64,000 nucleotides of DNA. It comes from Escherichia coli. Lineage in GTDB: Bacteria > Pseudomonadota > Gammaproteobacteria > Enterobacterales > Enterobacteriaceae. The position numbers and the translations under genes were made by a program. Positions 7,173 through 53,401 of this stretch are shown one piece after another (position 1 is the stretch's first letter; every line of letters begins with the position of its first letter). The notes under the pieces were generated by a model. It searched no databases and was not told the DNA's origin. It worked only from the letters and a program-made list of their open reading frames with translations. The stretch lies in assembly GCF_022846255.1 (NCBI RefSeq), contig NZ_AP025682.1, one strand, 5' to 3'.

Positions 7173-7346
7173 TTAGTGGTTATTCGCTGCCAGATCGGCT
7201 TCGCTTAGCTGAGTGGCCGCGAGCACCTGATCACGATCAATGCCCTGCTCCAGCATGCGCAAAGCAATTTTAATGGCTTGTTCATGCATGCCTTCCTGCC
7301 AGCCAATTTGATGTCCTTCCTGCCGTAGCCGTTCAGCAATAGTCAT
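7173..7346 (-). CDS. ypaA: Small Rpn C-terminal-domain-only protein (RpnE/YpaA-like), 57 aa
   Basis: Hand-translated: [57 protein letters not shown]; paralogous to the last ~75 aa of the adjacent yfaD product; same SD-containing sequence attaatctctcctttt precedes it; below the 60-aa ORF-track cutoff. Confidence 0.6.
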   Translation of the reverse strand: MTIAERLRQEGHQIGWQEGMHEQAIKIALRMLEQGIDRDQVLAATQLSEADLAANNH

Positions 7347-7358
7347 TAATCTCTCCTT

Positions 7359-8318
7359 TTAATGACCGTTCGGAATATCAGCATCAGTGAGTTGGGTTGT
7401 CGCCAGCACAATCTCACGTTCAAAGCCCTGTTCCAGCATGCGCAAGGCAATTTTAATGGCTTGTTCATGCATACCTTCTACTTTGCCTTTCTGCAAACCC
7501 TCCAATTTCCCCTCCTGCCAGCCTTCTAATTTACCTTCCTGCCAGCCAATTTGATGTCCTTCCTGCCGCAGCCGTTCAGCAATAGTCATTAATCTCTCCT
7601 TTTGTAGTGGTGAACGTTCGGCAATCTCCTCAATAAAACGGGTGAAACGGGAGGTATCGCCGCATTGCAGCAGATAATTAAACAGCGTTTGTAGCTGGCT
7701 GTCATTAGTGAAGCCTCTAACCAAAAGCGTGGTAATCCTGTCGACCATACCGATTAAATCGCGGTCGCGAATATGCTTTTGAATCAGTTCCAGCAGAGCT
7801 ATACGCCGATGTTGCATGATCTCATCGTCAGGTACGATGGTGATATCCACCAACGGAAAAGCTTCGGTGTACAACTGCCGGGCAAGTTGCGGATCGTCAA
7901 ACTCATCCAGCCAGTTGAGTGAGTACGGGTAGGGCGAGGTTTCGCCATGATAAAACAGCAATGGTACCACCAGCGGAACTCTGTCATAGCCTTTATCCAG
8001 GTGACGTTGCATGGCGGCAGTGGCATAGCGCATTAGTCGAAAAGCCATATTCTTTTCTGCAGAACTTTGATGTTCAATCACGCAGTAGATATAGCCGTCA
8101 CCGTCGCTGGTTTCCACCGACCACAAAACATCCGAGTAGTAAGCGCGTAAACTTTTTTCAATAAAGCTGGTGGGTTCCAGGCGTAAGGTTTGCAGGTTGC
8201 AAAGCTTGCGCAGCGGCTCTGGCAGATGTATTTCGAGAAAATCTCGCGCCGTATCGGGCGAGAACATAAAGGTTTTAAATACCGCATCATGCGGGGAGGA
8301 GGTTGTTGATTCGGTCAT
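7359..8318 (-). CDS. yfaD: Recombination-promoting nuclease RpnB (PD-(D/E)XK, transposase_31/YhgA-like family), 319 aa
   Basis: N-terminus [17 protein letters not shown] typical of Rpn/YhgA family; C-terminal xxEG tetrapeptide repeats. Confidence 0.8.
7473..7544 (-). repeat. In-frame tandem repeat inside yfaD encoding [24 protein letters not shown] (three 24-bp units)
   Basis: Read directly from codons 7473-7544; the ypaA copy has only one WQEG unit. Confidence 0.7.
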
Positions 8319-25471: not shown

Positions 25472-28099
25472 ATGAGCGACCTTGCGAGAGAAATTACACC
25501 GGTCAACATTGAGGAAGAGCTGAAGAGCTCCTATCTGGATTATGCGATGTCGGTCATTGTTGGCCGTGCGCTGCCAGATGTCCGAGATGGCCTGAAGCCG
25601 GTACACCGTCGCGTACTTTACGCCATGAACGTACTAGGCAATGACTGGAACAAAGCCTATAAAAAATCTGCCCGTGTCGTTGGTGACGTAATCGGTAAAT
25701 ACCATCCCCATGGTGACTCGGCGGTTTATGACACGATCGTCCGTATGGCGCAGCCATTCTCGCTGCGTTACATGCTGGTAGACGGTCAGGGTAACTTCGG
25801 TTCCATCGACGGCGACTCTGCGGCGGCAATGCGTTATACGGAAATCCGTCTGGCGAAAATTGCCCATGAACTGATGGCTGATCTCGAAAAAGAGACGGTC
25901 GATTTCGTTGATAACTATGACGGCACGGAAAAAATTCCGGACGTCATGCCAACCAAAATTCCTAACCTGCTGGTGAACGGTTCTTCCGGTATCGCCGTAG
26001 GTATGGCAACCAACATCCCGCCGCACAACCTGACGGAAGTCATCAACGGTTGTCTGGCGTATATCGATGATGAAGACATCAGCATTGAAGGGCTGATGGA
26101 ACACATCCCGGGGCCGGACTTCCCGACGGCGGCAATCATTAACGGTCGTCGCGGTATTGAAGAAGCTTACCGTACCGGTCGCGGCAAGGTATATATCCGC
26201 GCCCGTGCTGAAGTGGAAGTTGACGCCAAAACCGGACGTGAAACCATTATCGTCCACGAAATTCCTTATCAGGTGAACAAAGCGCGCCTGATCGAGAAGA
26301 TTGCGGAACTGGTAAAAGAAAAACGCGTGGAAGGCATCAGCGCGCTGCGTGACGAGTCTGACAAAGACGGTATGCGCATCGTGATTGAAGTGAAACGCGA
26401 TGCGGTCGGTGAAGTTGTGCTCAACAACCTCTACTCCCAGACCCAGTTGCAGGTTTCTTTCGGTATCAACATGGTGGCATTGCACCATGGTCAGCCGAAG
26501 ATCATGAACCTGAAAGACATCATCGCGGCGTTTGTTCGTCACCGCCGCGAAGTGGTGACTCGTCGTACTATTTTCGAACTGCGTAAAGCTCGCGATCGTG
26601 CTCATATCCTTGAAGCATTAGCCGTGGCACTGGCGAACATCGACCCGATCATCGAACTGATCCGTCATGCGCCGACGCCTGCAGAAGCGAAAACCGCGCT
26701 GGTTGCTAATCCGTGGCAGCTGGGCAACGTTGCCGCGATGCTGGAACGTGCGGGCGACGATGCTGCGCGTCCGGAATGGCTGGAGCCAGAGTTCGGCGTG
26801 CGTGATGGTCTGTACTACCTGACCGAACAGCAAGCTCAGGCGATTCTGGATCTGCGTTTGCAGAAACTGACCGGCCTTGAGCACGAAAAACTGCTCGACG
26901 AATACAAAGAGCTGCTGGATCAGATCGCGGAACTGTTGCGTATTCTTGGTAGCGCCGATCGTCTGATGGAAGTGATCCGCGAAGAGCTGGAGCTGGTTCG
27001 TGAACAGTTCGGTGACAAACGTCGTACTGAAATCACCGCCAACAGCGCAGACATCAACCTGGAAGATCTGATCACCCAGGAAGATGTGGTCGTGACGCTC
27101 TCTCACCAGGGCTACGTGAAGTATCAGCCGCTTTCTGAATACGAAGCGCAGCGTCGTGGCGGGAAAGGTAAATCTGCCGCACGTATTAAAGAAGAAGACT
27201 TTATCGACCGACTGCTGGTGGCGAATACCCACGACCATATTCTGTGCTTCTCCAGCCGTGGTCGCGTCTATTCGATGAAGGTCTACCAGTTGCCAGAAGC
27301 TACTCGTGGCGCGCGTGGTCGTCCGATCGTCAACCTGCTGCCGCTGGAACAGGACGAACGTATCACCGCGATCCTGCCGGTGACCGAGTTTGAAGAAGGC
27401 GTGAAAGTCTTCATGGCGACCGCTAACGGTACGGTGAAGAAAACCGTCCTCACCGAGTTCAACCGTCTGCGTACCGCCGGTAAAGTGGCGATCAAACTGG
27501 TTGAAGGCGATGAGCTGATCGGCGTTGACCTGACCAGCGGCGAAGACGAAGTAATGCTGTTCTCCGCTGAAGGTAAAGTGGTGCGCTTTAAAGAGTCTTC
27601 TGTCCGTGCGATGGGCTGCAACACCACCGGTGTTCGTGGTATTCGTTTAGGCGAAGGCGATAAAGTCGTCTCTCTGATCGTGCCTCGTGGCGATGGCGCA
27701 ATCCTCACCGCAACGCAGAACGGTTATGGTAAACGTACCGCAGTGGCGGAATACCCAACCAAGTCGCGTGCGACGAAAGGGGTTATCTCCATCAAGGTTA
27801 CCGAACGTAACGGTTTAGTGGTTGGCGCGGTGCAGGTAGATGACTGCGACCAGATCATGATGATCACCGATGCCGGTACGCTGGTACGTACTCGCGTTTC
27901 GGAAATCAGCATCGTAGGCCGTAACACCCAGGGCGTAATCCTTATCCGTACTTCGGAAGATGAAAACGTGGTGGGTCTGCAACGTGTTGCTGAACCGGTT
28001 GACGAGGAAGATCTGGATACCATCGACGGCAGTGCCGCGGAAGGGGACGATGAAATCGCTCCGGAAGTGGACGTTGACGACGAGCCAGAAGAAGAATAA
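25472..28099 (+). CDS. gyrA: DNA gyrase subunit A, 875 aa
   Basis: Unmistakable GyrA sequence; QRDR wild-type (Ser83 TCG at 25718-25720, Asp87 GAC at 25730-25732). Confidence 0.97.
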
Positions 28100-28247: not shown

Positions 28248-35094
<6,847 letters not shown>

Positions 35095-37598: not shown

Positions 37599-38783
37599 TT
37601 AATTCAACCGTTCAATCACCATCGCAATTCCCTGGCCGCCACCAATGCATAGTGTTGCCAGCCCCAGCGTTTTATCGCGTGCCTGCATGGCATGTAATAG
37701 TGTGACCAGAATACGAGCACCACTGGCACCGATAGGATGCCCGAGCGCGATGGCCCCGCCGTTGACATTCACTTTCTCAGGCTCAAAGCCCAGGGTTTTC
37801 CCAACGGCAAGGAACTGTGCAGCAAATGCTTCATTAGCCTCAATGAGATCAATATCCGCCAGTTGCAGCCCCGCCAGTTGTAACGCTTTTTGCGTGGCAG
37901 GTACTGGCCCCATACCCATCAATGCGGGGGGCACGCCACCGCTGGCATAACTTTTAATGCGAGCCAGGGGGGTAAGGCCTGCTGCCAGCGCCGCAGATTC
38001 TTCCATAATCACCAGAGCGGCAGCACCGTCGTTAATACCAGACGCGTTCCCGGCGGTGACTGTTCCTGCTTTATCGAAGGCCGGGCGCAATGCGCCTAAC
38101 GCTTCAGTCGTAGAATCCGCTTTCGGGAATTCGTCTTGACTGAAGACGAAGGTTTTCTTCCGAGTGACAACATTTACCGGGACGATTTCGGCTGTAAAAG
38201 CACCGGACTCAATTGCGGCAGCCGCTTTACGCTGTGAATGTAGCGCCAGTTCATCCTGCATTTCTCGGGTAATTCCGTACTCTTTGGCCACGTTCTCGGC
38301 GGTAATCCCCATATGATAACCATGGGTGGCGCACATCAGACCATCGCGCAGGATTACGTCATAAACCTGTCCGTCTCCAAGACGATAACCAGAGCGTGCT
38401 TTTGCATCGAGTAAGTAGGGCGCTAAACTCATATTTTCCATACCCCCCGCCACAATGCTTTGCGCCTGACCTGCCTGAATTGCCTGGGCGGCAAGCGCCA
38501 CACTTTTAAGACCCGAACCACACACTTTATTGACCGTGAATCCGCACACCGTTTCTGCCAGCCCGCTTTTTAACAGTGCCTGACGTGCCGGATTTTGCCC
38601 CAACCCGGCTTGCAACACGTTACCCATAATCACTTCATCAATGTGTAGTGAATCGATTTTTGCACGTTCAATGGCGGCTTTAATTACTGTCGCCCCCAGG
38701 TCGATGGCGCTGGTGGACGCGAGTGAACCGTTAAAACTACCGATAGCAGTACGTACCGCACTGACGATGACACAATTTTTCAT
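37599..38783 (-). CDS. atoB: Acetyl-CoA acetyltransferase (thiolase II), 394 aa
   Basis: Protein recognised. Confidence 0.9.
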
Positions 38784-38813
38784 TTTTTAATCCTTCTGTC
38801 TGTAGGGTTGCCG

Positions 38814-40136
38814 TCAGAACAGCGTTAAACCAATGACGAAAATGACGCCGGAGAAGAGCAGGGCAGTGATGCAATAGCCCATGATGTCGCGGACACCGAG
38901 TCCGGCGATTGCCAGTGCTGGCAGCGCCCAGAATGGTTGTGCCATGTTCATCCATTGCTCGCCGTAGGCGATCGCCATTACCGATTTACCGAGATCAGCG
39001 CCCAGCGCCTGGGCTGCGGGTATCACGAAAGGTCCCTGAATAACCCAGTGACCGCCGCCAGACGGAACGGCGAAGTTAATCAGTGCAGAACTAAAAAAGG
39101 TCATTACCGGGAAGGTGTCTTTGTTCGCAACATTGATGAAGAATTCGGTAATGAGTCCGCCCAGACCGGAATGCTCCATCATCAGTTGGATCCCAGCGTA
39201 GAAGGGGAATTGCACCAGAATACCGGCAGTACTGCGTGCTGCCGCGCTGATAGCACGCATATAAGCCATTGGCGTTTTATGTAGCAGCAGACCCGCAATC
39301 ATAAACATCAGGTTGACGGTATTGATGGTGATGTTGAAGCCATGTTCGCTGAAGTACATCGCAAGGTAAGCGATACCGAGTGCGCCGATGATCAACGTCA
39401 GAATGCGGCTTTCTTCCAGTCGCTCGGATGGTGGGGCATCTTTCGGTAGCTGCTTTTGAAAATCAGCCTCTTCCATGAGTAGTTTCGGATCGATACTCAC
39501 CACGTCAGACGGTTTTGGCATCATCATGCGGGTGATAAATGGCATCACCACAATCAACGCCACAGTGATGAAAATATTAAAACCACTGAACAGAGTATCG
39601 CCCACCGGGATCAGCCCGGCGATATGCTCAACCGGGTTGCCCGGTGTTGCAGCCAACAGAGGCATTGAGCCAGAGAAACCGCCACCCCAGGTGAGAAAAC
39701 CAATGTAGGCGCAGGCAATGAGCAACGGATAATCAGAACCGGGTACTCGCCGGGCGACTTCACGGGCGAACATTGCACCGACAACCAAACCAAATCCCCA
39801 GTTGATGACACAAGCGACTGAACCGAAGAAAGTAACCAGCATGACGCCCTGTACGGGCGTCTTTGCGGCGGAGGCGGCAGTACGCAGCAAACTTTTCACC
39901 GGAGCGGAGCTGGCAAGGGCATGACCGGTAACGATGATAAGCGCCATCTGCATACCAAACGCCAGCAAGTTCCAGAAACCGTCACCCCACATTTTCACCA
40001 TGCTGATCGGCGTTTGTGGTGTTAACCAAAGCGCGATCACGAATGTTAGCAATGTCAGCAACATGGCAAAGATCAGTGGATCGGGAAGCCACCGGCTGAC
40101 AAAACGCGTCATAAAACGCGATATGCGACCAATCAT
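38814..40136 (-). CDS. atoE: Short-chain fatty acid transporter, 440 aa
   Basis: Protein recognised. Confidence 0.85.
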   Translation of the reverse strand: MIGRISRFMTRFVSRWLPDPLIFAMLLTLLTFVIALWLTPQTPISMVKMWGDGFWNLLAFGMQMALIIVTGHALASSAPVKSLLRTAASAAKTPVQGVMLVTFFGSVACVINWGFGLVVGAMFAREVARRVPGSDYPLLIACAYIGFLTWGGGFSGSMPLLAATPGNPVEHIAGLIPVGDTLFSGFNIFITVALIVVMPFITRMMMPKPSDVVSIDPKLLMEEADFQKQLPKDAPPSERLEESRILTLIIGALGIAYLAMYFSEHGFNITINTVNLMFMIAGLLLHKTPMAYMRAISAAARSTAGILVQFPFYAGIQLMMEHSGLGGLITEFFINVANKDTFPVMTFFSSALINFAVPSGGGHWVIQGPFVIPAAQALGADLGKSVMAIAYGEQWMNMAQPFWALPALAIAGLGVRDIMGYCITALLFSGVIFVIGLTLF

Positions 40137-40783
40137 AAATCACCCCGTTGCGTATTCAGATCGGCAGCGACTTCAAACCGAGCTTCTGTTTTGGCACGCA
40201 CGGTGGCTAAATCACACCCGTCGGCAATTTCGGTGAGCCACATTTTGCCGTCAATAAAACGAAAGACAGCCAGTTCAGTAACCAGCATATGCACCGCATG
40301 TTGCGCAGTGAGTGGCATGGTGCAGCGGCGCAAAATTTTTGCTGAACCATCTTTGGCGCAATGTTCCATGGCGATGATCACTTTGCGCGACCCGGTCACC
40401 AGATCCATCGCGCCACCCATACCGGGCACCATTTTCCCAGGCACTACCCAGTTCGCGAGGTTTGCTTCTTCGTCTACTTGCAAACCGCCGAGCACGCAGG
40501 CATCAATATGACCGCCACGGATTAGCGCAAATGACATGGCGCTATCAAACATGGCTGCACCGGGTAAAATGCCGCACGGTTGTCCGCCAGCGTTCACCAG
40601 ATCGGGATGCGCTGTTGTGACCGGGCCTAAACCGAGGAAGCCGTTTTCCGATTGCAGAGTGATATGAATACCCTCCGGTAAATAATTGGCGACCATTGTG
40701 GGTAAACCGATCCCTAAGTTAACGATGTCACCATCACGAAGCTCTTGCGCCACACGGCGCGCAATACGTTGTTTCGCATCCAT
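40133..40783 (-). CDS. atoA: Acetate CoA-transferase beta subunit, 216 aa
   Basis: Protein recognised; 4-bp overlap with atoE. Confidence 0.9.
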   Translation of the reverse strand: MDAKQRIARRVAQELRDGDIVNLGIGLPTMVANYLPEGIHITLQSENGFLGLGPVTTAHPDLVNAGGQPCGILPGAAMFDSAMSFALIRGGHIDACVLGGLQVDEEANLANWVVPGKMVPGMGGAMDLVTGSRKVIIAMEHCAKDGSAKILRRCTMPLTAQHAVHMLVTELAVFRFIDGKMWLTEIADGCDLATVRAKTEARFEVAADLNTQRGDL

Positions 40784-41445
40784 TATTTGCTCTCCTGTGA
40801 AACGATGATGTGGTCGATAACGGCACCAGGGGTGACAATATGGTCAGGTTGCAGCTCGCCGGTTTCGACCAGTTCATCTGGCTCTACCAGCGTGATATCA
40901 GCCGCAAGGGCTATCAGGGGGTTAAAGTTGCGGGCGCTAAGGTGATAGGTCAGGTTGCCAAGTGTGTCGCAACGATGAGCGCGAATTAGCGCCAGGTCGG
41001 CGCGCAGCGGGCGTTCGAGCAGCCAGGTTTTACCGTCGAGTGTCAGTGTCTGTTTGCCTTCCTCTACGACGGTGCCGACACCCGTTGGGGTGAGAAAACC
41101 ACCAAGTCCAGCTCCGCCACAGCGAATTTGCTCGATTAGCGTACCTTGCGGCACCAGAACGACGTCCATCTCACCAGATATCATGCGCCGACCTGTTTCC
41201 GGGTTGGTGCCGATATGTGAAGCAATCACTTTGCGGACTCGACCATTGACGATGAGCGGACCGATGCCGGTATCAACAAACGCGGTATCATTGGCTATCA
41301 ATGTCAGGTCGCGAACACCAGATTCCAGTAATGCTTCAACCAGGCGGGATGGAGTGCCAATCCCCATAAATCCGCCCACCATGATGGTCATGCCGTCACG
41401 AAAGAAGCCGGTGGCGTCTTGTAATGTCATCAATTTTGTTTTCAT
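40783..41445 (-). CDS. atoD: Acetate CoA-transferase alpha subunit, 220 aa
   Basis: Protein recognised; 1-bp overlap with atoA. Confidence 0.9.
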
Positions 41446-41490: not shown

Positions 41491-41506
41491 AGCAAGGGGA
41501 GTGCCA
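41491..41506 (-). promoter_or_regulatory. Sigma-54 promoter of atoDAEB (-24/-12)
   Basis: Minus strand reads TGGCAC-TCCCC-TTGCT, matching TGGCAC-N5-TTGCW, ~45 bp upstream of the atoD ATG. Confidence 0.75.
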
Positions 41507-41588: not shown

Positions 41589-41629
41589 GCTATGCAGAAA
41601 ATTGCGCACTGTGCAAATTTCTGCATAGC
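41589..41629. promoter_or_regulatory. AtoC upstream activating sequence (inverted 20-bp repeats)
   Basis: gctatgcagaaaattgcgca-c-tgtgcaaatttctgcatagc, near-perfect palindrome ~100 bp upstream of the sigma-54 element. Confidence 0.75.
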
Positions 41630-41640
41630 AAGTTTTGGCG

Positions 41641-41819
41641 TTATACATCCGCCGGATCGATACCGTATTCCTGGAGTTTATACATCAATGCACGGCGACT
41701 GATGCCCAGCATTAATGCAGTGCGGGTTCGGTTTCCTTCTTGTTGTTCCAGCACTTCCATAATGATGCGTTTTTCGACGCGTTTAATTTCCTCTTTTAAA
41801 TTACGCTCACCGACAGGGG
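41641..41819 (-). pseudogene. atoC: atoC 3' fragment (C-terminal HTH domain) separated from the rest of the gene by IS4
   Basis: Hand-translated in frame with the 5' part across the TSD: ...PVGERNLKEEIKRVEKRIIMEVLEQQEGNRTRTALMLGISRRALMYKLQEYGIDPADV*. Confidence 0.85.
41808..41819. repeat. IS4 target-site duplication, left copy (CACCGACAGGGG)
   Basis: Identical 12-mer directly flanks the other IS4 end at 43246-43257. Confidence 0.9.
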
Positions 41820-43245
41820 TAATGCCAGTCAGTTAAGCAACTGACTGGCTCTTTTTCGGGGCTGTGGGGTATTTCCAGGGCCTCTCCTTTACCACTCTCG
41901 GGAAGGCCCTTTCCCTTCTTGTCGGTAATTTCACAAGTTGTCCCATACTTGCAAGATCGCGCATCAGCTCCGGTATACGTCCCGGTGAAGCGCCCTGCAA
42001 TGTCATCAGCATTCTCATCACCATTCCACATGATTCTGAGAAACTCAGTTGATTCGGCCAGTAACCTTTCAGATGTTCCGCCATTTTAATCATCTGATAT
42101 CTCACCAGATTATAAGCCAGTAAGACACCCCACAGCTCTTGCTCCACAAGCTCCGGTTTTTTACTTCTCAGCGTCAGCCTGCTCAGTTGCATCGTCTGTT
42201 TTATCTCCCTGTATCCCAGTTCGATTTCCCAGCGATGACTGTACAGATCCGCCATTTCTCCTCCGGGGAAGCGCATGGCGTCCGTCATCGACGTCAGCAG
42301 ATGGCAGACTTTTCCTTTGCGCGTCACGGTCAGCAGGCGGGCTGTCACTTCATTTCCCAGTCCCGGCCACTTTTTTCGTGCCTGCGGGCTGGTTTTCAGC
42401 TTCACCAGATGATCGCCTTTACCCAGTTTTCTGATCTCTTCATATTGCGCTCCCTTTCTGAGAGGTATCATCCAGTGGCGGTGTTCTCCCGCCAGGCTCC
42501 AGGCATTTAACAGTCCCAGTGAGTAATAACCTTTATCCATTAACGTCAGAGTGTTATCGCCGGTTTGTTCTATAAGTTGCTCAGCAAGCTCATTTTCGCT
42601 GTTCTTCATCGTGCCGAAGGCTGCAGCCGTCAGCAGATGGCTGGTCAGTTCCATCTGGCAGACCATTTTGACCTGCGGGTAGAGCGCCGGGTTCCCGGCA
42701 TGTGTCTGGCGGGGGAAGGCTGCATCGTTCTCTGGTGTATCCGGTGTGCGCCAGAACACACCATCGATGGCCAGCAGGGTCAGGCCGCACCAGTGCGGAT
42801 GCGGCGTGGCGTTATGCCAGAGCTGCGCTGTTTTCGTGAACACGCGGCGGACAGCCTCACTTCCCAGGCGCTGGCGGGCCTGAATAACGGCACTGGGGGC
42901 AACGAAGGGGCGATTGCCCGGCAGCATGATGTCCAGGCGATTCACAATCTGGTGAAGAGGTTCTTTACGCTCAAGCGCCATGCCAACAATACACCAGACC
43001 ATCATTTCGAGGGGAAGACGGCGCTTGCGTAGCGTTACAGTACCTGATTCGGCAAGGCAACGAGAGATGAGTTCGGGGTCGAGGTAATCCCCCAGAGAAG
43101 TCAGTGGGTTACGCAGAGAATCGTAACGGGATACCAGATCAAGAGCCTGTCCAATGTGCATAAAAAAATCCGGAAACAAGTGAGCGTTTCCGGATTCTTA
43201 CACAGCCACTGGATCGGTCAACTGATCCTTAACTGATCGGCATTA
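41820..43245 (-). mobile_element. IS4 insertion sequence, complete (1426 bp)
   Basis: Terminal inverted repeats TAATGCCAGTCAGTTAAG / TAATGCCGATCAGTTAAG (16/18 match); 1426 bp between them; single 442-aa IS4-family transposase; flanked by 12-bp direct repeat. Confidence 0.9.
41833..43161 (-). CDS. insG: IS4 transposase InsG, 442 aa
   Basis: Starts [16 protein letters not shown]; the ORF-track 448-aa version begins 6 codons upstream. Confidence 0.9.
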
Positions 43246-44464
43246 CACCGACAGGGGCTGTTTTTGCCTCACCAGCATTACAGACTGGCTGACGAATCTG
43301 CGGCGGAAGATCCTCAGAGAAAATGATCGGGCCTGAGTTCATCACGACGGCGCGTTCAATGACGTTGGAAAGCTCTCGAATATTACCCGGCCATGACCAG
43401 GCGGTAAGCAGCGACATTGCCATCGGATCGATGTCGATAATATCGCGCTGATTCTCACTACTGAATTTTTGCAAAAAGTGATTAGCTAACAGGGAAATAT
43501 CTTCCCGGCGATCGCGCAGAGGCGGCAGTATTAAATGAATAACGTTAAGGCGATAAAAGAGATCTTCACGGAAGGTGCCTTCTTTCACCATTGCCTGCAA
43601 GTCGCGGTTGGTGGCAGCAATGATGCGGATATCAACTTTTATGGTCTGATGACCGCCAATCCGTTCAAATTCCCGTTCCTGCAGAATGCGTAGTAATTTG
43701 GCTTGCAGTACCAGCGGCATTTCGCCAATTTCGTCGAGGAGCAGAGTACCTTCGTTGGCACGTTCAAATAATCCCTGACGTAAGGTTTGTGCACCAGTAA
43801 ATGCGCCTTTTTCATGACCAAACAGTTCACTTTCGAGCAACGATTCCGGCAGCGCCGCGCAGTTGACTTTAATGAACGGCCCCTTTGCCCTCCGCGAATT
43901 GTAGTGAATCGCTCTGGCAATCAACTCTTTCCCGGTGCCGCTTTCACCGCTAATCAAGACGCTGGCCTGAGAAAGGGCAATTTTGGCGGTGTCTTTGCAG
44001 ATGTCCATCATCGCCGGGCTGTTGGTGAGAATGTGCCCCCATTGCCAGCTGGTGCTCAGTGCCTGGTGCAGATGACGGATCTCTTTTTTCATTGACTGGA
44101 GTTGTAAAGCGCGCTGAACGATTAAATTCAACTCATCGAGATCAAACGGTTTGATAACATAGTCGAAGGCTCCGCAGCGTAGTGCTTCGACGGCGGTTTC
44201 CACTTCAGCATAGGCCGTCATCAGAATAACGGGTGTCCGGGTCTCATGGCTGCGCATCTCCTTGAGTGCCTTGATGCCGTCCATCTCTGGCATGCGGATA
44301 TCCATCAACACCACGTCAGGGTGAATATCGGCAAACAGGTGTAATGCTGTGCGCCCGTTGTTCGCACAATGTGTTTCGAATCCTTGTAGTGCAAAAGCGG
44401 TGCTCAGCATACGGCGAACATTATCTTCATCATCCACAATAAGGATGCGATTAATAGCAGTCAT
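43229..44464 (-). pseudogene. atoC: atoC 5' part: receiver plus sigma-54 AAA+ domains, truncated by IS4 (406 native codons + VMPIS from the IS end)
   Basis: ORF of 411 aa ends 17 nt inside the IS4 terminal repeat; GESGTGKE Walker A and GAFTGA motif present; HTH absent. Confidence 0.85.
43246..43257. repeat. IS4 target-site duplication, right copy (CACCGACAGGGG)
   Basis: Identical to 41808-41819. Confidence 0.9.
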
Positions 44465-46287
44465 ACAGTCTGATTTCCCTGCGGGTTGATCGGTAAAATA
44501 AGCGTGAAGGTTGCGCCGTAGCCCGGCAAACTGGCGACGCGAATATCACCCTGATGGGCATTAATGATGCGTTGACTTAACGCCAGACCAAGCCCGGTTC
44601 CTGAGGCTTTGGTAGTGAAAAAGGGATCGAAGATCTTTTTTTGCAGCGAGAGATCAATGCCACTGCCGTTGTCCTCTATCGAAATGGCCTGTTGTGAGTC
44701 GCTATACTGCCAGGTTCGAATGCGAATTTTCCCTCGTGCACTGATAGCCTGGACGGCATTGATCAGGATATTCAGTAGTACCTGTTTGAGCAGTTCACGA
44801 TCGGCGTTAATCGGGCTTAATTCATTATCCAGTTCGCTTATGAAGTCGACCCGCGCTTGTACGCCGGCGGTTTGTACCAGTACCAGAGTTTCTTCAACCA
44901 ATGCATTGAGGCTGACTTGTTGCCATTGACTGTGGCGTGGACGTGAAAATTCGAGCAATTGCTGAATAACTTTGTTAATTGAATCGATTTCTTTGAGTAC
45001 TACGGACAGATATTCCTGATGTATTGGGTCACGGGTTTGTTGGCGCAAGATCTGTACATAACCACGAATAGCTGTTAGCGGATTACGTAATTCATGCGCC
45101 ACGCCAGCCATCAGCTCACCCAGTGTGGCGAGGCGTTCTGCTTGCGCCATGCGGCGCTGGGTTTCTTTGCGGGCAGTTAAATCAGAGAAAATCACCAAAG
45201 CACCTATCATTTCACCGTGCGTGTTATGAATACGACTGGTCGTGACACTGAGTTCAATGGTGCGGTCACGGCCTGGAAAACTGATCTCCAGTGCTACATG
45301 TTCGGTGCCATGTTCCAGCGTATCCAGTACTGGACTGTAGAACTGAGTATTGTCGAACAACATGGAGTAAGGCTGCCCTACCAGTTCATGACGTTGATAG
45401 CCAGTGATGACTTCTGCTGCTGGGTTCATGGTGGTTACATCACCCTGGCGGTCAATGGCAATGACGCCATCGGCAGCGTTTTCAATAATCAGATCGTTAA
45501 GTGTTCGCGTTTCACGCAGTGCCTGGGCGAGGTTGTTAACACTCTGACTGATTTGCCCCATTTCACCGGGCAATTGTGGTAATCGAGTGGGAATATTTTG
45601 TGCCAGAGTCGAGAGGCCATCGGTGATGATATCTATATTGGCGCTCAGGCGACGGGAGAAAAGGACAATCAACAGCAGGCTTATCAGCAAACCGGCGGTG
45701 AGCACAATGATAATCCTCACATCCATTTTCCAGGCCTGGCGGCGAATATCTTCGGTTAATTCATTGGCCCAGATATAGCCGAGGATTTCACCATTACGCT
45801 CAATGGGAATCATTGAATTCAAAATATCGCCGCGCACCTGCCTGCCTGAATAAACCAAAGGGGTATTTGTACGCATGACTTCGCGACCAGGGTGATCTGC
45901 GGCAATGGTAACGCCCACATTATTCTGATATAGCGCTGAAGGCGCGTAGGTGATTATCGCATCCAGCGTTTTGTTGTAATAACCAGCGCCGATGCCAGGG
46001 AAGGCGTGAGTGATATTTTCGGTAATGGGGGCAAGTTCTGCATTTAATGCGCGGATATGCTCCTCACGCGGTAAGTCGATGTAGAGATCGTAGCGATTGC
46101 CTAGCGCCTGATTAAGCAGGTTGACCACGGCAGAAAGTTTTTTCTCTTTTTCAGATAAGACTGCTGAACGTCCTTCCGTTTCTACGATATAACCAATAGT
46201 AAGCGTTGGGACAATGACCATCAGGATTGCCATCAGGATCATTTGATTGCGTAAGCGGCGTGGATAAATCCACTTCATATAATGCAT
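44461..46287 (-). CDS. atoS: Sensor histidine kinase AtoS, 608 aa
   Basis: Starts [15 protein letters not shown]; ATGA overlap with atoC start. Confidence 0.9.
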
Positions 46288-46453: not shown

Positions 46454-49303
46454 TTGAAATACCTTGCTTCTTTTCGTACAACCCTGAAAGCCTCGCGCTA
46501 CATGTTCAGAGCATTGGCGTTAGTGCTCTGGCTGTTGATTGCTTTTTCATCCGTTTTTTACATCGTTAATGCGTTACATCAGCGAGAATCGGAAATTCGT
46601 CAGGAATTTAATCTGAGTTCCGATCAGGCTCAGCGCTTTATTCAACGCACCTCTGATGTGATGAAAGAGCTGAAGTACATAGCTGAAAATCGCTTATCGG
46701 CAGAAAACGGTGTGCTTTCCCCGCGTGGACGAGAAACGCAGACGGATGTGCCTGCGTTTGAACCGCTGTTTGCTGACTCTGATTGTTCCGCAATGAGTAA
46801 CACCTGGCGAGGTTCTCTGGAGTCATTGGCGTGGTTTATGCGCTACTGGCGCGATAATTTTTCTGCGGCTTACGATCTAAACCGGGTATTTTTAATCGGC
46901 AGCGATAACCTCTGCATGGCTAATTTCGGTCTGCGTGATATGCCAGTGGAACGCGATACCGCGTTAAAAGCTTTGCATGAACGCATTAATAAATATCGAA
47001 ATGCACCACAAGATGATAGTGGCAGTAACCTCTACTGGATCAGCGAAGGTCCGCGCCCTGGCGTCGGGTATTTTTACGCCTTGACGCCAGTTTATCTGGC
47101 GAACCGGTTGCAGGCGCTTTTGGGTGTCGAGCAAACCATCCGGATGGAGAACTTTTTCTTACCTGGTACGTTGCCGATGGGGGTTACCATTCTTGATGAA
47201 AATGGTCATACCCTGATTTCGCTTACCGGACCAGAAAGCAAAATTAAGGGCGATCCTCGCTGGATGCAGGAACGCTCCTGGTTTGGCTATACGGAAGGGT
47301 TCCGGGAGCTGGTGCTGAAGAAAAATCTGCCACCCTCATCGCTAAGCATCGTGTATTCGGTGCCGGTTGATAAGGTGCTGGAACGCATTCGCATGTTGAT
47401 CCTTAACGCAATTTTGCTGAATGTGCTTGCCGGAGCTGCATTGTTTACTCTCGCGCGGATGTACGAGCGGCGTATTTTCATTCCGGCGGAAAGCGACGCC
47501 TTGCGACTGGAAGAACATGAGCAGTTTAATCGCAAGATTGTCGCCTCCGCGCCAGTGGGTATCTGCATTTTGCGTACCGCTGATGGCGTCAATATTTTAA
47601 GTAACGAACTGGCGCATACCTATCTCAATATGCTTACGCATGAGGATCGCCAACGGCTGACACAAATTATCTGTGGGCAGCAGGTCAATTTTGTTGATGT
47701 CCTGACCAGCAACAATACCAATCTGCAAATCAGCTTCGTCCATTCGCGCTATCGTAATGAAAACGTGGCCATTTGTGTGCTTGTGGATGTTTCTTCGCGC
47801 GTGAAGATGGAAGAGTCGTTGCAGGAGATGGCACAAGCAGCGGAACAGGCGAGTCAGTCAAAATCGATGTTCCTTGCCACCGTCAGTCATGAGCTGCGAA
47901 CGCCGCTGTATGGCATTATCGGTAACCTGGATCTGTTGCAAACCAAAGAGTTACCGAAAGGCGTCGATCGTCTGGTGACGGCAATGAACAACTCTTCCAG
48001 CCTGTTGTTGAAAATTATCAGCGATATTCTCGATTTCTCGAAGATTGAATCGGAACAGTTGAAGATCGAACCGCGTGAGTTTTCACCGCGTGAAGTGATG
48101 AACCACATCACCGCCAACTATTTACCGCTGGTGGTACGCAAGCAGTTAGGCTTGTACTGCTTTATTGAACCGGATGTGCCAGTGGCCTTAAATGGCGACC
48201 CGATGCGTTTACAGCAGGTCATCTCCAACCTGTTGAGTAACGCCATAAAATTCACCGATACCGGCTGTATAGTTTTGCATGTTCGCGCTGATGGCGATTA
48301 TCTCTCTATCCGTGTTCGCGATACCGGCGTGGGGATTCCGGCGAAAGAAGTCGTGCGCTTGTTTGATCCCTTCTTCCAGGTCGGAACGGGCGTACAGCGA
48401 AACTTCCAGGGGACCGGTCTGGGTCTGGCGATTTGTGAAAAACTGATCAGCATGATGGACGGCGATATCTCGGTAGATTCAGAACCGGGAATGGGCAGCC
48501 AGTTTACCGTGCGTATTCCGTTGTACGGCGCTCAGTACCCGCAGAAAAAAGGCGTGGAAGGGTTGAGTGGTAAACGCTGCTGGCTGGCGGTCCGCAATGC
48601 GTCGCTCTGTCAGTTCCTGGAAACCAGTTTGCAGCGCAGCGGCATCGTCGTTACAACATACGAAGGGCAGGAACCGACTCCCGAAGATGTGTTAATCACT
48701 GACGAGGTAGTGAGCAAAAAATGGCAGGGTAGAGCGGTAGTGACCTTCTGTCGTCGCCATATTGGTATTCCGCTGGAGAAAGCGCCAGGGGAGTGGGTAC
48801 ACAGTGTGGCTGCCCCGCATGAGCTACCGGCATTGTTGGCGCGTATTTATTTGATCGAGATGGAGAGCGATGATCCTGCTAACGCTCTGCCGTCGACGGA
48901 CAAAGCGGTCAGCGATAACGACGATATGATGATTCTGGTCGTGGATGATCATCCGATTAACCGGCGTCTTCTGGCAGATCAGTTGGGATCGTTGGGCTAT
49001 CAATGTAAAACCGCGAATGATGGCGTCGATGCGCTTAATGTACTTAGCAAGAATCATATTGATATCGTGCTTAGCGACGTCAACATGCCAAATATGGATG
49101 GTTACCGCTTGACGCAACGCATTCGTCAGTTGGGACTGACGTTGCCGGTTATCGGAGTAACTGCTAATGCGTTGGCTGAAGAGAAGCAGCGGTGTCTGGA
49201 GTCCGGTATGGACAGCTGCCTGTCGAAGCCGGTAACGCTGGATGTGATAAAACAGACGCTAACGGTATATGCCGAGAGGGTCAGGAAATCGCGGGATTCG
49301 TAG
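46454..49303 (+). CDS. rcsC: Hybrid sensor kinase RcsC, 949 aa (TTG start) or 933 aa from ATG 46502
   Basis: HisKA/HATPase plus C-terminal receiver; the ORF-track start is TTG. Confidence 0.9.
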   Translation: MKYLASFRTTLKASRYMFRALALVLWLLIAFSSVFYIVNALHQRESEIRQEFNLSSDQAQRFIQRTSDVMKELKYIAENRLSAENGVLSPRGRETQTDVPAFEPLFADSDCSAMSNTWRGSLESLAWFMRYWRDNFSAAYDLNRVFLIGSDNLCMANFGLRDMPVERDTALKALHERINKYRNAPQDDSGSNLYWISEGPRPGVGYFYALTPVYLANRLQALLGVEQTIRMENFFLPGTLPMGVTILDENGHTLISLTGPESKIKGDPRWMQERSWFGYTEGFRELVLKKNLPPSSLSIVYSVPVDKVLERIRMLILNAILLNVLAGAALFTLARMYERRIFIPAESDALRLEEHEQFNRKIVASAPVGICILRTADGVNILSNELAHTYLNMLTHEDRQRLTQIICGQQVNFVDVLTSNNTNLQISFVHSRYRNENVAICVLVDVSSRVKMEESLQEMAQAAEQASQSKSMFLATVSHELRTPLYGIIGNLDLLQTKELPKGVDRLVTAMNNSSSLLLKIISDILDFSKIESEQLKIEPREFSPREVMNHITANYLPLVVRKQLGLYCFIEPDVPVALNGDPMRLQQVISNLLSNAIKFTDTGCIVLHVRADGDYLSIRVRDTGVGIPAKEVVRLFDPFFQVGTGVQRNFQGTGLGLAICEKLISMMDGDISVDSEPGMGSQFTVRIPLYGAQYPQKKGVEGLSGKRCWLAVRNASLCQFLETSLQRSGIVVTTYEGQEPTPEDVLITDEVVSKKWQGRAVVTFCRRHIGIPLEKAPGEWVHSVAAPHELPALLARIYLIEMESDDPANALPSTDKAVSDNDDMMILVVDDHPINRRLLADQLGSLGYQCKTANDGVDALNVLSKNHIDIVLSDVNMPNMDGYRLTQRIRQLGLTLPVIGVTANALAEEKQRCLESGMDSCLSKPVTLDVIKQTLTVYAERVRKSRDS

Positions 49304-49497
49304 GACGGATAAGGCGTTTACGCCGCATCTGGCATTCAGTGCAAATGCCAGATGCGACGCTGACGTGTCTTATCTGGCCTACTTTAATGTAATCTGTTGA
49401 AATAATGGGAATCGTAGGACGGATAAGGCGTTTACGCCGCATCCGGCAATCGGTGCAAATGCCAGATAAGACACTAACGCGTCTTATCTGGCCTACA
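49304..49497. repeat. REP/BIME cluster between convergent rcsC and rcsB
   Basis: Two copies of cgtaggacggataaggcgtttacgccgcatc (about 49297 and 49412) plus inverted partners ending cttatctggcctac. Confidence 0.8.
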
Positions 49498-53153: not shown

Positions 53154-53246
53154 AAAAAAAACCGGATGCGAGGCATCCGGTTGAAATAGGGGTAAACAGA
53201 CATTCAGAAATGAATGACGGTAATAAATAAAGTTAATGATGATAGC
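53154..53246 (-). ncRNA. micF: MicF antisense sRNA (93 nt), repressor of ompF translation
   Basis: Minus strand reads GCTATCATCATTAACTTTATTTATTACCGTCATTCATTTCTGAATGTCTGTTTACCCCTATTTCAACCGGATGCCTCGCATCCGGTTTTTTTT, ending in a hairpin plus U8 terminator; divergent from ompC. Confidence 0.9.
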
Positions 53247-53401
53247 GGGAGATATTCTAGTTGCGAGTGAAGGTTTTGTTTTGACATTCAGTGCTGTCAA
53301 ATACTTAAGAATAAGTTATTGATTTTAACCTTGAATTATTATTGCTTGATGTTAGGTGCTTATTTCGCCATTCCGCAATAATCTTAAAAAGTTCCCTTAT
53401 A

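Follow-up and report, generated by a model that had tools for sequence, protein, structure and literature searches.

IS4, the founding member of the IS4 family, is represented in Escherichia coli K-12 by a 1426-bp element (insG) with a single 442-aa YREK transposase, located between yjgZ and nanX and bordered by a 12-bp duplication (CAGAACCAAGAT); atoC is intact in that strain. The target-site duplications of IS4 span about one helical turn of DNA, 11-13 bp, and terminator-like targets have been reported for it. The hallmarks of the family have been listed, and a striking specificity for the target arms has been described in the IS4 subgroup (PMC2266710). One widely occupied IS4 site lies between rpoD and mug, and consists of an A-run, 3 nt, and a duplicated core of 12-14 bp. 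AtoSC, the system concerned here, has a regulon centred on short-chain fatty-acid catabolism; AtoC has also been reported to affect motility and polyamine synthesis and to act as an ornithine-decarboxylase antizyme. The AtoC site, upstream of atoDAEB, is an inverted palindrome of 40 bp that controls both inducibility and AtoC binding (PMC3118216).

Natural inactivations of AtoSC-atoDAEB occur in other E. coli: about 28% of complete genomes had no match to atoC-atoD, and strain SCU-172 carries an IS1A in atoS. Like these cases, the locus described here, in a 64-kb stretch of E. coli DNA (the window), is one where a dispensable module for short-chain fatty-acid catabolism has been lost or disrupted; it differs from them in that the operon and its promoter were kept and only the DNA-binding domain of the activator was detached. 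We consider it highly likely that the locus as a whole is best explained as a canonical IS4 insertion that disables DNA binding by AtoC, at a target that IS4 has entered recurrently.

The element occupies positions 41820..43245 on the minus strand, with its transposase co-directional with atoC and atoDAEB, and is both the sole IS4 copy and the only IS in the window. It is exactly 1426 bp long between two identical 12-mers, is 100% identical over that length to IS4/insG copies annotated in numerous E. coli genomes, and matches the IS4 mobile-element feature of MG1655 (NC_000913.3) at 1421/1426 positions, with 5 mismatches and no gaps. Its terminal inverted repeats, TAATGCCAGTCAGTTAAG at the transposase-distal end (41820..41837) and CTTAACTGATCGGCATTA at the transposase-proximal end (43228..43245), agree at 16/18 positions when the second is reverse-complemented, follow the pattern TAATGCC(AG/GA)TCAGTTAAG, and are the same as the ends of the MG1655 feature. 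The sole open reading frame in the element (43161..41833, minus strand) is intact and encodes 442 aa from an ATG or 448 aa from an upstream TTG. Its product is assigned to the NCBIfam IS4 equivalog NF033592 with 304 bits (cut-off 115), a protein identical to it is matched by Pfam Nterm_IS4 and DDE_Tnp_1, and a Y(2)R(3)E(6)K motif is found at residues 307-321. The original prediction of a complete 1426-bp IS4 with 18-bp imperfect terminal inverted repeats and one 442-aa transposase was thus borne out in each part. Only its location sets this copy apart from that of K-12 in the features compared above, and its intact frame and ends, together with recent insertions elsewhere, suggest that it is active.

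Exact copies of the 12-mer CACCGACAGGGG flank the element at 41808..41819 on the atoD side and at 43246..43257 on the side of the atoC 5' end. The 12-mer is present just twice in the 64-kb window, counting either strand, the repeat cannot be extended by even one base at either side, and K-12 atoC contains it in single copy at codons 403-406. Alignment to K-12 MG1655 produced two gapless, collinear pieces that overlap by 12 bp in K-12 and are separated by 1426 bp in the window, so that the IS and one duplicate account for all of the length difference. Deletion of 41820-43257 gave an unbroken 461-codon atoC frame whose 461-aa product has one substitution relative to K-12 (V400A). Both the duplication and the continuous frame had been anticipated from the window alone. 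The site was empty in K-12, and equally so in every one of the 3,911 complete E. coli genomes in which this part of atoC is present.

On the evidence of its profile match and domain order, the interrupted gene is atoC. The reconstructed protein has the NtrC-family architecture, with Response_reg at residues 7-115, Sigma54_activat at 145-311, AAA_lid_14 at 317-394 and the Fis-type HTH_8 at 415-454; the phospho-acceptor D55 and the GAFTGA loop can be read directly in the translation. What remains upstream of the IS is a 411-aa frame (43229..44464, minus strand) consisting of AtoC residues 1-406 and the tail VMPIS contributed by the IS end, and NF008469 (AtoC) matched it with 883 bits over profile positions 1-406 of 461. 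This product includes the receiver, the sigma-54 AAA+ domain and the lid. The break falls between the lid and HTH_8, much as foreseen by the claim that AtoC was cut after about residue 406 and its receiver and AAA+ domains split from the C-terminal helix-turn-helix. The HTH_8 region was located, by reconstruction and Pfam, on a detached 3' remnant (residues 403-461; 41641..41819, minus strand), and a full-length, DNA-binding-competent AtoC is not encoded by the window as it stands. The transposase stop codon happens to be in frame with this remnant, which raised the possibility of a transposase-AtoC C-terminal fusion; no ATG, GTG or TTG start was found between that stop and the HTH, nor any mechanism for read-through, and we regard the shared frame as coincidence.

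The rest of the ato system is present and intact, all on the minus strand. The sensor kinase gene atoS (44461..46287, 608 aa) was identified in the ORF list and was also called as a gene on L004, whose sequence has 100% identity to that of the window. Upstream of atoD are the AtoC-binding inverted palindrome (2 x ~20 bp, GCTATGCAGAAATTTGCACA/GTGCGCAATTTTCTGCATAGC; 41589..41629) and a -24/-12 element, TGGCAC-N5-TTGC (41492..41506), which was found by pattern matching to the established sigma-54 consensus. The block 37599..41445 contains full-length atoD (40783-41445, 220 aa), atoA (40133-40783, 216 aa), atoE (38814-40136, 440 aa) and atoB (37599-38783, 394 aa), with the same lengths as in K-12 and 0-7 amino-acid differences.

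These features are best explained by a simple series of events. IS4 entered atoC by its usual cut-and-paste DDE transposition with a 12-bp staggered cut of the target, and came to rest past the AAA+ lid but short of the C-terminal Fis-type helix-turn-helix. The 411-aa AtoC keeps its phospho-receiver (D55) and its sigma-54 ATPase module (GAFTGA) but would be unable to bind its 40-bp palindrome ahead of atoD, and the atoDAEB sigma-54 promoter, although intact, should therefore no longer respond to acetoacetate. It is reasonable to conclude from the domain loss that acetoacetate-inducible atoDAEB expression would be absent, and induction of short-chain fatty-acid (acetoacetate/butyrate) catabolism is expected to fail in this strain. 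The predicted defect comprises the loss of acetoacetate- and butyrate-inducible ato expression and of AtoC-dependent regulation.

Transcripts running on from atoS-atoC into the IS would contain a strong hairpin followed by a U-run directly upstream of the transposase ATG (43164..43199, minus strand; inverted repeat I7, 14-nt arms, 93% complementary), and would probably terminate or be occluded there, before the transposase start. The RNA fold of 43260..43140 contained this hairpin (MFE -46.5 kcal/mol, z -4.95), and a sigma-70-like -35/-10 pair at 43221..43194 overlaps its 5' arm. A terminator scan missed the hairpin, probably because the stem runs into the T-run, but it was revealed by a repeat finder as well as by the RNA fold. 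Inside the other IS4 end is a terminator-like hairpin on the plus strand (41824..41849) with an 11-bp stem, a 4-nt loop and then TCTTTTT, which faces transcription entering on that strand.

An alternative outcome, that the insertion is neutral or even activating, seems improbable to us. Some NtrC-family activators lacking a DNA-binding domain still activate from solution when abundant, so residual activity of the truncated AtoC, with its AAA+ module and GAFTGA loop intact, is possible; the IS might also supply constitutive low ato expression by reading outward, as its transposase is co-oriented with atoD and the T-run of the distal-end hairpin lies on the opposite strand only, leaving outward read-through not obviously terminated. 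The only sigma-70-like site found, however, was a weak one, the transposase's own, and no strong outward promoter is known for IS4. Reversed copies of the element also occur at this atoC site, which argues against selection for outward transcription, and the AtoC palindrome is reported to control both inducibility and AtoC binding (PMC3118216).

Although atoC::IS4 was absent from all 5,426 complete RefSeq E. coli genomes, the same junction was found elsewhere in public contigs, at least 14 of them, representing at least 7 flank haplotypes. The exact truncated protein was encoded on 12 contigs, in the orientation of the window; two more had the opposite end of IS4 joined at exactly this junction, with the tail VMPVS that had been predicted beforehand for a reversed element. 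The flanks of the 12 contigs differed from the window by 0.6-1.1%, and within atoC all of the differences were synonymous. Logan contigs DRR322657 and DRR322658 were 100% identical to the window. The flanks of the window itself reached no more than 98.9% identity over 20 kb to any complete E. coli genome; its lineage is missing from the RefSeq complete set. A Shigella origin, which these flanks and the lack of the insertion in complete genomes had suggested, was discarded, as the exact protein is assigned to E. coli in public records and the window contains a single IS. Both junctions could be followed in the window and L001 only, the other contigs ending inside the IS. The insertion had originally been called strain-specific, which is correct in relation to K-12, where the site is empty, but it is not unique, as the junction recurs in other lineages.

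Varied flanks and opposite orientations at one position identify the atoC site as a recurrent IS4 target, and show that IS4 inserted there independently and in both orientations. A single ancestral insertion, either passed down vertically and diverging later, or moved between backgrounds by transduction or homologous recombination, would account for the identical junction and AtoC amino-acid sequence in all 12 same-orientation contigs, and for the haplotype common to the window, L001 and L005 over the first ~280 bp beside the IS. It does not account for the two contigs in which the IS is reversed at the same position, nor for L003 and L002, whose 4219-nt flanks are 100.0% identical, up to the junction, to complete genomes with an intact atoC. 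Four contigs differ from the window at a SNP just 11 bp from the duplication, and L001 differs from the window at 2/1426 positions in the IS against 53/5810 in the flanks. This reading is therefore largely refuted, and we consider it very unlikely. IS elements are often misassembled, and misplacement of IS4 in atoC through repeat collapse would be another way to generate such a structure, but we find this exceedingly improbable given the perfect 12-bp duplication, the precise junctions and the exact restoration of the empty site. The same junction was moreover present in independent assemblies from other samples; among these are short-read contigs that cross from atoC into the end of the IS, together with an NCTC assembly in which both junctions are present.

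The position is not a random one; IS4 favours targets made up of an A-run, a palindrome and a T-run. In ten other IS4 copies the duplications measured 12-14 bp and were bordered by AAAAA-N3 and N3-TTTTT. These 10 sites were used to construct a half-site weight matrix, a crude model, which, scored on the 62.5-kb window without the IS, placed the atoC site in the extreme upper tail, 25th of 250,080 position-and-length combinations and about 21st among distinct loci, with 20 loci scoring higher. Its score of 10.6 was below those of all 10 training sites (15-35), and one of its arms contributed nothing. The site resembles that at rpoD-mug: the atoC target also has an A-run, 3 nt and a core of similar kind, and the two cores (CCCCTGTCGGTG in atoC, CACCTTTTCGGTG in rpoD-mug) are close enough that BLAST matches extended ~22 nt past both IS ends. 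Unlike rpoD-mug, the atoC site is inside a coding sequence, has one consensus arm with the T-run on the other side shifted by 4 nt, and carries an insertion only in rare lineages. What atoC offers to IS4 is a single good arm and a core like that of a widely occupied site. Sequence preference explains the hotspot only partially, and selection for atoC loss, or the sheer number of genomes sampled, may contribute to the recurrence.

The element and the mechanism are known and the knock-out is an ordinary one, leaving the understanding of IS4 and of AtoC unchanged; what is new is the recurrence of the atoC junction across lineages in spite of its absence from the complete genomes. No published description of the allele was found in the literature searched. 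The insertions amount to a clean natural case in which the target selectivity of IS4 delivers the same knock-out allele repeatedly to unrelated lineages, and they call for caution in using IS insertions as phylogenetic or typing markers, since common descent cannot be deduced from a shared atoC::IS4 junction. In principle, atoC::IS4 is reversible by precise excision. We can imagine, as an outside chance that we think unlikely, that IS4 has a true preference for landing in atoC codons 403-406, and that in natural E. coli populations recurrent insertion there serves as a possibly reversible on/off switch for the AtoSC regulon, one that selection in certain gut niches maintains or favours, instead of being mutational noise; if so, reversal would proceed by excision across the 12-bp repeat. 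The predicted defect would be masked in public annotation, where the exact truncated protein is recorded from E. coli under the simple name AtoC.

The IS4 copy in atoC is a precise insertion with a 12-bp duplication of its target, through which AtoC loses its helix-turn-helix and keeps its receiver and ATPase modules. The 12-mer CACCGACAGGGG occurs at 41808-41819 and 43246-43257 and nowhere else on either strand of the 64-kb window, and the match between the two copies stops at 12 bp with no extra base on either side, bearing out the target duplication put forward in the original prediction. Alignment to K-12, the check suggested with the original prediction, bore it out: it gave two gapless blocks that overlap by exactly 12 bp in K-12, with a 1426-bp gap in the window. 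Deletion of 41820-43257 in silico (the element and one 12-mer) restored the expected continuous frame, an unbroken 461-aa protein that differs from K-12 AtoC by a single residue change, V400A. In 3,911 complete E. coli genomes, atoC-atoD aligned as a single block with an 800-nt reconstruction of the empty site, with identities as high as 99.5%.

The segment between the 12-mers (1426 bp, 41820-43245) is IS4 itself, disrupting the gene by the textbook mechanism. Its termini, TAATGCCAGTCAGTTAAG and CTTAACTGATCGGCATTA, are inverted repeats matching at 16/18 positions, and the one long ORF it contains (43161..41833, minus strand) encodes 442 aa counted from the ATG, as anticipated for a complete element with 18-bp imperfect ends. 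Many E. coli genomes hold copies, annotated "IS4-like element IS4 family transposase / insG", that match the element at 100% identity over its full 1426 bp. It is equal in length to the K-12 MG1655 mobile-element feature "insertion sequence:IS4", with 5 differing positions and no gaps. The transposase scored 304 bits against the NCBIfam IS4 transposase equivalog (cut-off 115), Pfam Nterm_IS4 and DDE_Tnp_1 were found on a protein identical to it, and the Y(2)R(3)E(6)K signature lies at residues 307-321. PMC2266710 counts that motif among the hallmarks of the IS4 family, along with a single ORF and a target duplication close to one helical turn in length. The window holds one IS4 copy; near-full copies, one or more per genome, occur in 2,479 of the 5,426 complete E. 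coli genomes.

As it stands, ORF 44464..43229 encodes AtoC residues 1-406 followed by VMPIS, and the AtoC equivalog model aligned to this product only over model positions 1-406 of 461. Pfam places Response_reg at AtoC residues 7-115, Sigma54_activat at 145-311, AAA_lid_14 at 317-394 and HTH_8 at 415-454; because the AtoC part of the ORF and the model alignment both end at residue 406, the entire DNA-binding domain is detached. The earlier finding of an IS4 insertion that cuts AtoC after about residue 406 and separates the C-terminal helix-turn-helix is real, correctly interpreted and ordinary. The detached HTH_8 is carried on a remnant (41641-41819) with no preceding start codon. The transposase stop codon (41833-41835) is in frame with this remnant (…*LTGITPVGERNLKEE…), probably by coincidence, since no start codon lies between them. 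Public records BDH32766.1, STH81807.1 and STL76347.1 hold the 411-aa truncated product, its last five residues IS4-derived, deposited as ordinary "AtoC" without a pseudogene flag.

The insertion leaves the target operon, atoDAEB, and its promoter intact. The gene call for atoS, made on a contig that matches the window at 100% identity, is full length (608 aa); atoD (220 aa), atoA (216 aa), atoE (440 aa) and atoB (394 aa) are also full length, with 0-7 substitutions each relative to K-12. The inverted palindrome GCTATGCAGAAATTTGCACA/GTGCGCAATTTTCTGCATAGC (41589-41629) and the sigma-54 element TGGCAC-N5-TTGC (41492-41506), both located between the IS and atoD, are untouched; PMC3118216 places AtoC binding at a 40-bp inverted palindrome 5' of atoDAEB. 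Without its HTH, AtoC could not be tethered to the enhancer, and for this reason we infer that acetoacetate induction of atoDAEB via sigma-54 should fail. As a caveat, some NtrC-family activators keep activity from solution without a DNA-binding domain, and the transposase gene, which is co-oriented with atoD, may allow weak read-out into atoD. Transcripts entering the IS from atoS-atoC would carry a hairpin (14-15 bp) and then a U-run just 5' of the transposase ATG (43199..43164), and this hairpin dominates the predicted RNA fold (-46.5 kcal/mol, z -4.95). A sigma-70-like promoter (TTGACC-16-AAGAAT, 43221..43194) overlaps its 5' arm, so the hairpin would be absent from transcripts started at IS4's own promoter and would fold in read-through RNA, a familiar arrangement that protects insertion sequences against transcription coming from outside. 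A terminator-like hairpin at the other IS end faces inward (+ strand, 41824-41849). The ato locus is dispensable and often lost or broken in nature: in about 28% of the 5,426 complete genomes nothing matched the atoC 3' end and atoD 5' end, and SCU-172 has an IS1A within atoS.

Evidence from public contigs indicates that this exact position in atoC is a recurrent IS4 target, occupied in both orientations. A query spanning both junctions recovered the insertion in 0 of 5,426 complete RefSeq E. coli genomes, the best matches reaching only about 22 nt beyond the IS at either end. Twelve public contigs encode the exact 411-aa product, among them two from NCBI assemblies and several from assembled Logan read sets; the sources label it simply AtoC of E. 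coli. The DRR322657 and DRR322658 contigs are 100% identical to the window, and the remainder diverge from it by 0.6-1.1% in rcsC-atoS-atoC, with all differences within atoC synonymous. The original description of the insertion as strain-specific relative to K-12 holds in that K-12 atoC is an empty site, but the same junction is also found on other public contigs. One of these (L001) carries the whole element and also a 12-bp duplication, with 2/1426 differences in the IS versus 53/5810 in the flanks; the flanks of two others (L002 and L003; 4219 nt, ending at the junction itself) show 100.0% identity to complete genomes, such as ATCC 11775, in which atoC is annotated and intact. Two haplotypes directly adjoin the IS, with one SNP just 11 bp from the duplication, and at least seven flank haplotypes were found overall. 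A hotspot in a quasi-palindromic target should also receive IS4 in the opposite orientation, giving the tail VMPVS; the predicted VMPVS-tailed protein was found on two contigs, where the junction is CCCCTGTCGGTG|TAATGCCAGTCAGTTAAGCAACTGAC, the opposite terminus of IS4 abutting exactly the same position. Three or more independent insertions have firm support, and there were probably more than that. The 20.7-kb flank at 43246-64000 reached a best identity of 98.9% to any of the 5,426 complete genomes, so the source lineage is not closely represented at this locus in that set.

In one genome (GCA_900448835.1; loci L009-L018, with IS4 at locus positions 1417-2842), ten further IS4 copies have 12-14-bp duplications flanked by AAAAA-N3 / N3-TTTTT, in agreement with the target-arm specificity reported as "spectacular" for the IS4 subgroup (PMC2266710). 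Almost all are in intergenic terminator-like palindromes (A-run, stem-loop, T-run), such as those at adhE/tdk, rpoD/mug, degS/mdh and eno, and one splits bcsG. The atoC site, gcAAAAAcag[CCCCTGTCGGTG]agcgtaaTTT, has one good arm, and the T-run of the other is displaced 4 nt. Its duplicated core (CCCCTGTCGGTG) resembles the core at rpoD-mug (CACCTTTTCGGTG), a site that IS4 occupies widely, which hints that sequence preference extends to the duplicated bases and is not confined to the arms. This resemblance accounts for the flank extension in the both-junction search; BLAST alignments to mug-adjacent IS4 copies (H1-H11, L013) run about 22 nt past both IS ends (41797-41819, 43246-43267). In a crude half-site matrix the atoC site is among the very highest scores in the window (rank 25/250,080), and below all ten training sites and 20 other window loci, so sequence preference is part of the explanation for recurrence and not clearly the whole; loss of atoC may also be selected for, or the recurrence may partly reflect how very many genomes have been sampled.

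None of the papers covered by a literature search describes IS4 in atoC; the allele is already in public assemblies, unremarked. What is new is the allele and its target site, the element being a known one, and recurrence in both orientations at one exact position is a modest addition that matters where IS junctions serve as lineage markers.

Elsewhere in the window, an ORF for an Rpn-family recombination-promoting nuclease (7359-8318, minus strand; NF007418, 707 bits) has its C-terminal tail duplicated in a 70-nt direct repeat (7291-7360 and 7534-7603, 98.6% identical), with a second, detached tail-like segment downstream, an arrangement that resembles K-12 yfaD/ypaA. An uninterrupted 1539-aa ORF (30475-35094, plus strand), with no NCBIfam match at E<=1e-10, occupies the position of yfaS, which we take to be a split pseudogene in K-12. 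GyrA (25472-28099, plus strand) is wild-type at the quinolone-resistance-determining residues S83 and D87. Two naRNA4 (REP325-type) units between rcsC and rcsB (49303-49379 and 49417-49493, plus strand) and MicF upstream of ompC (53154-53247, minus strand) are expected in this chromosomal region.
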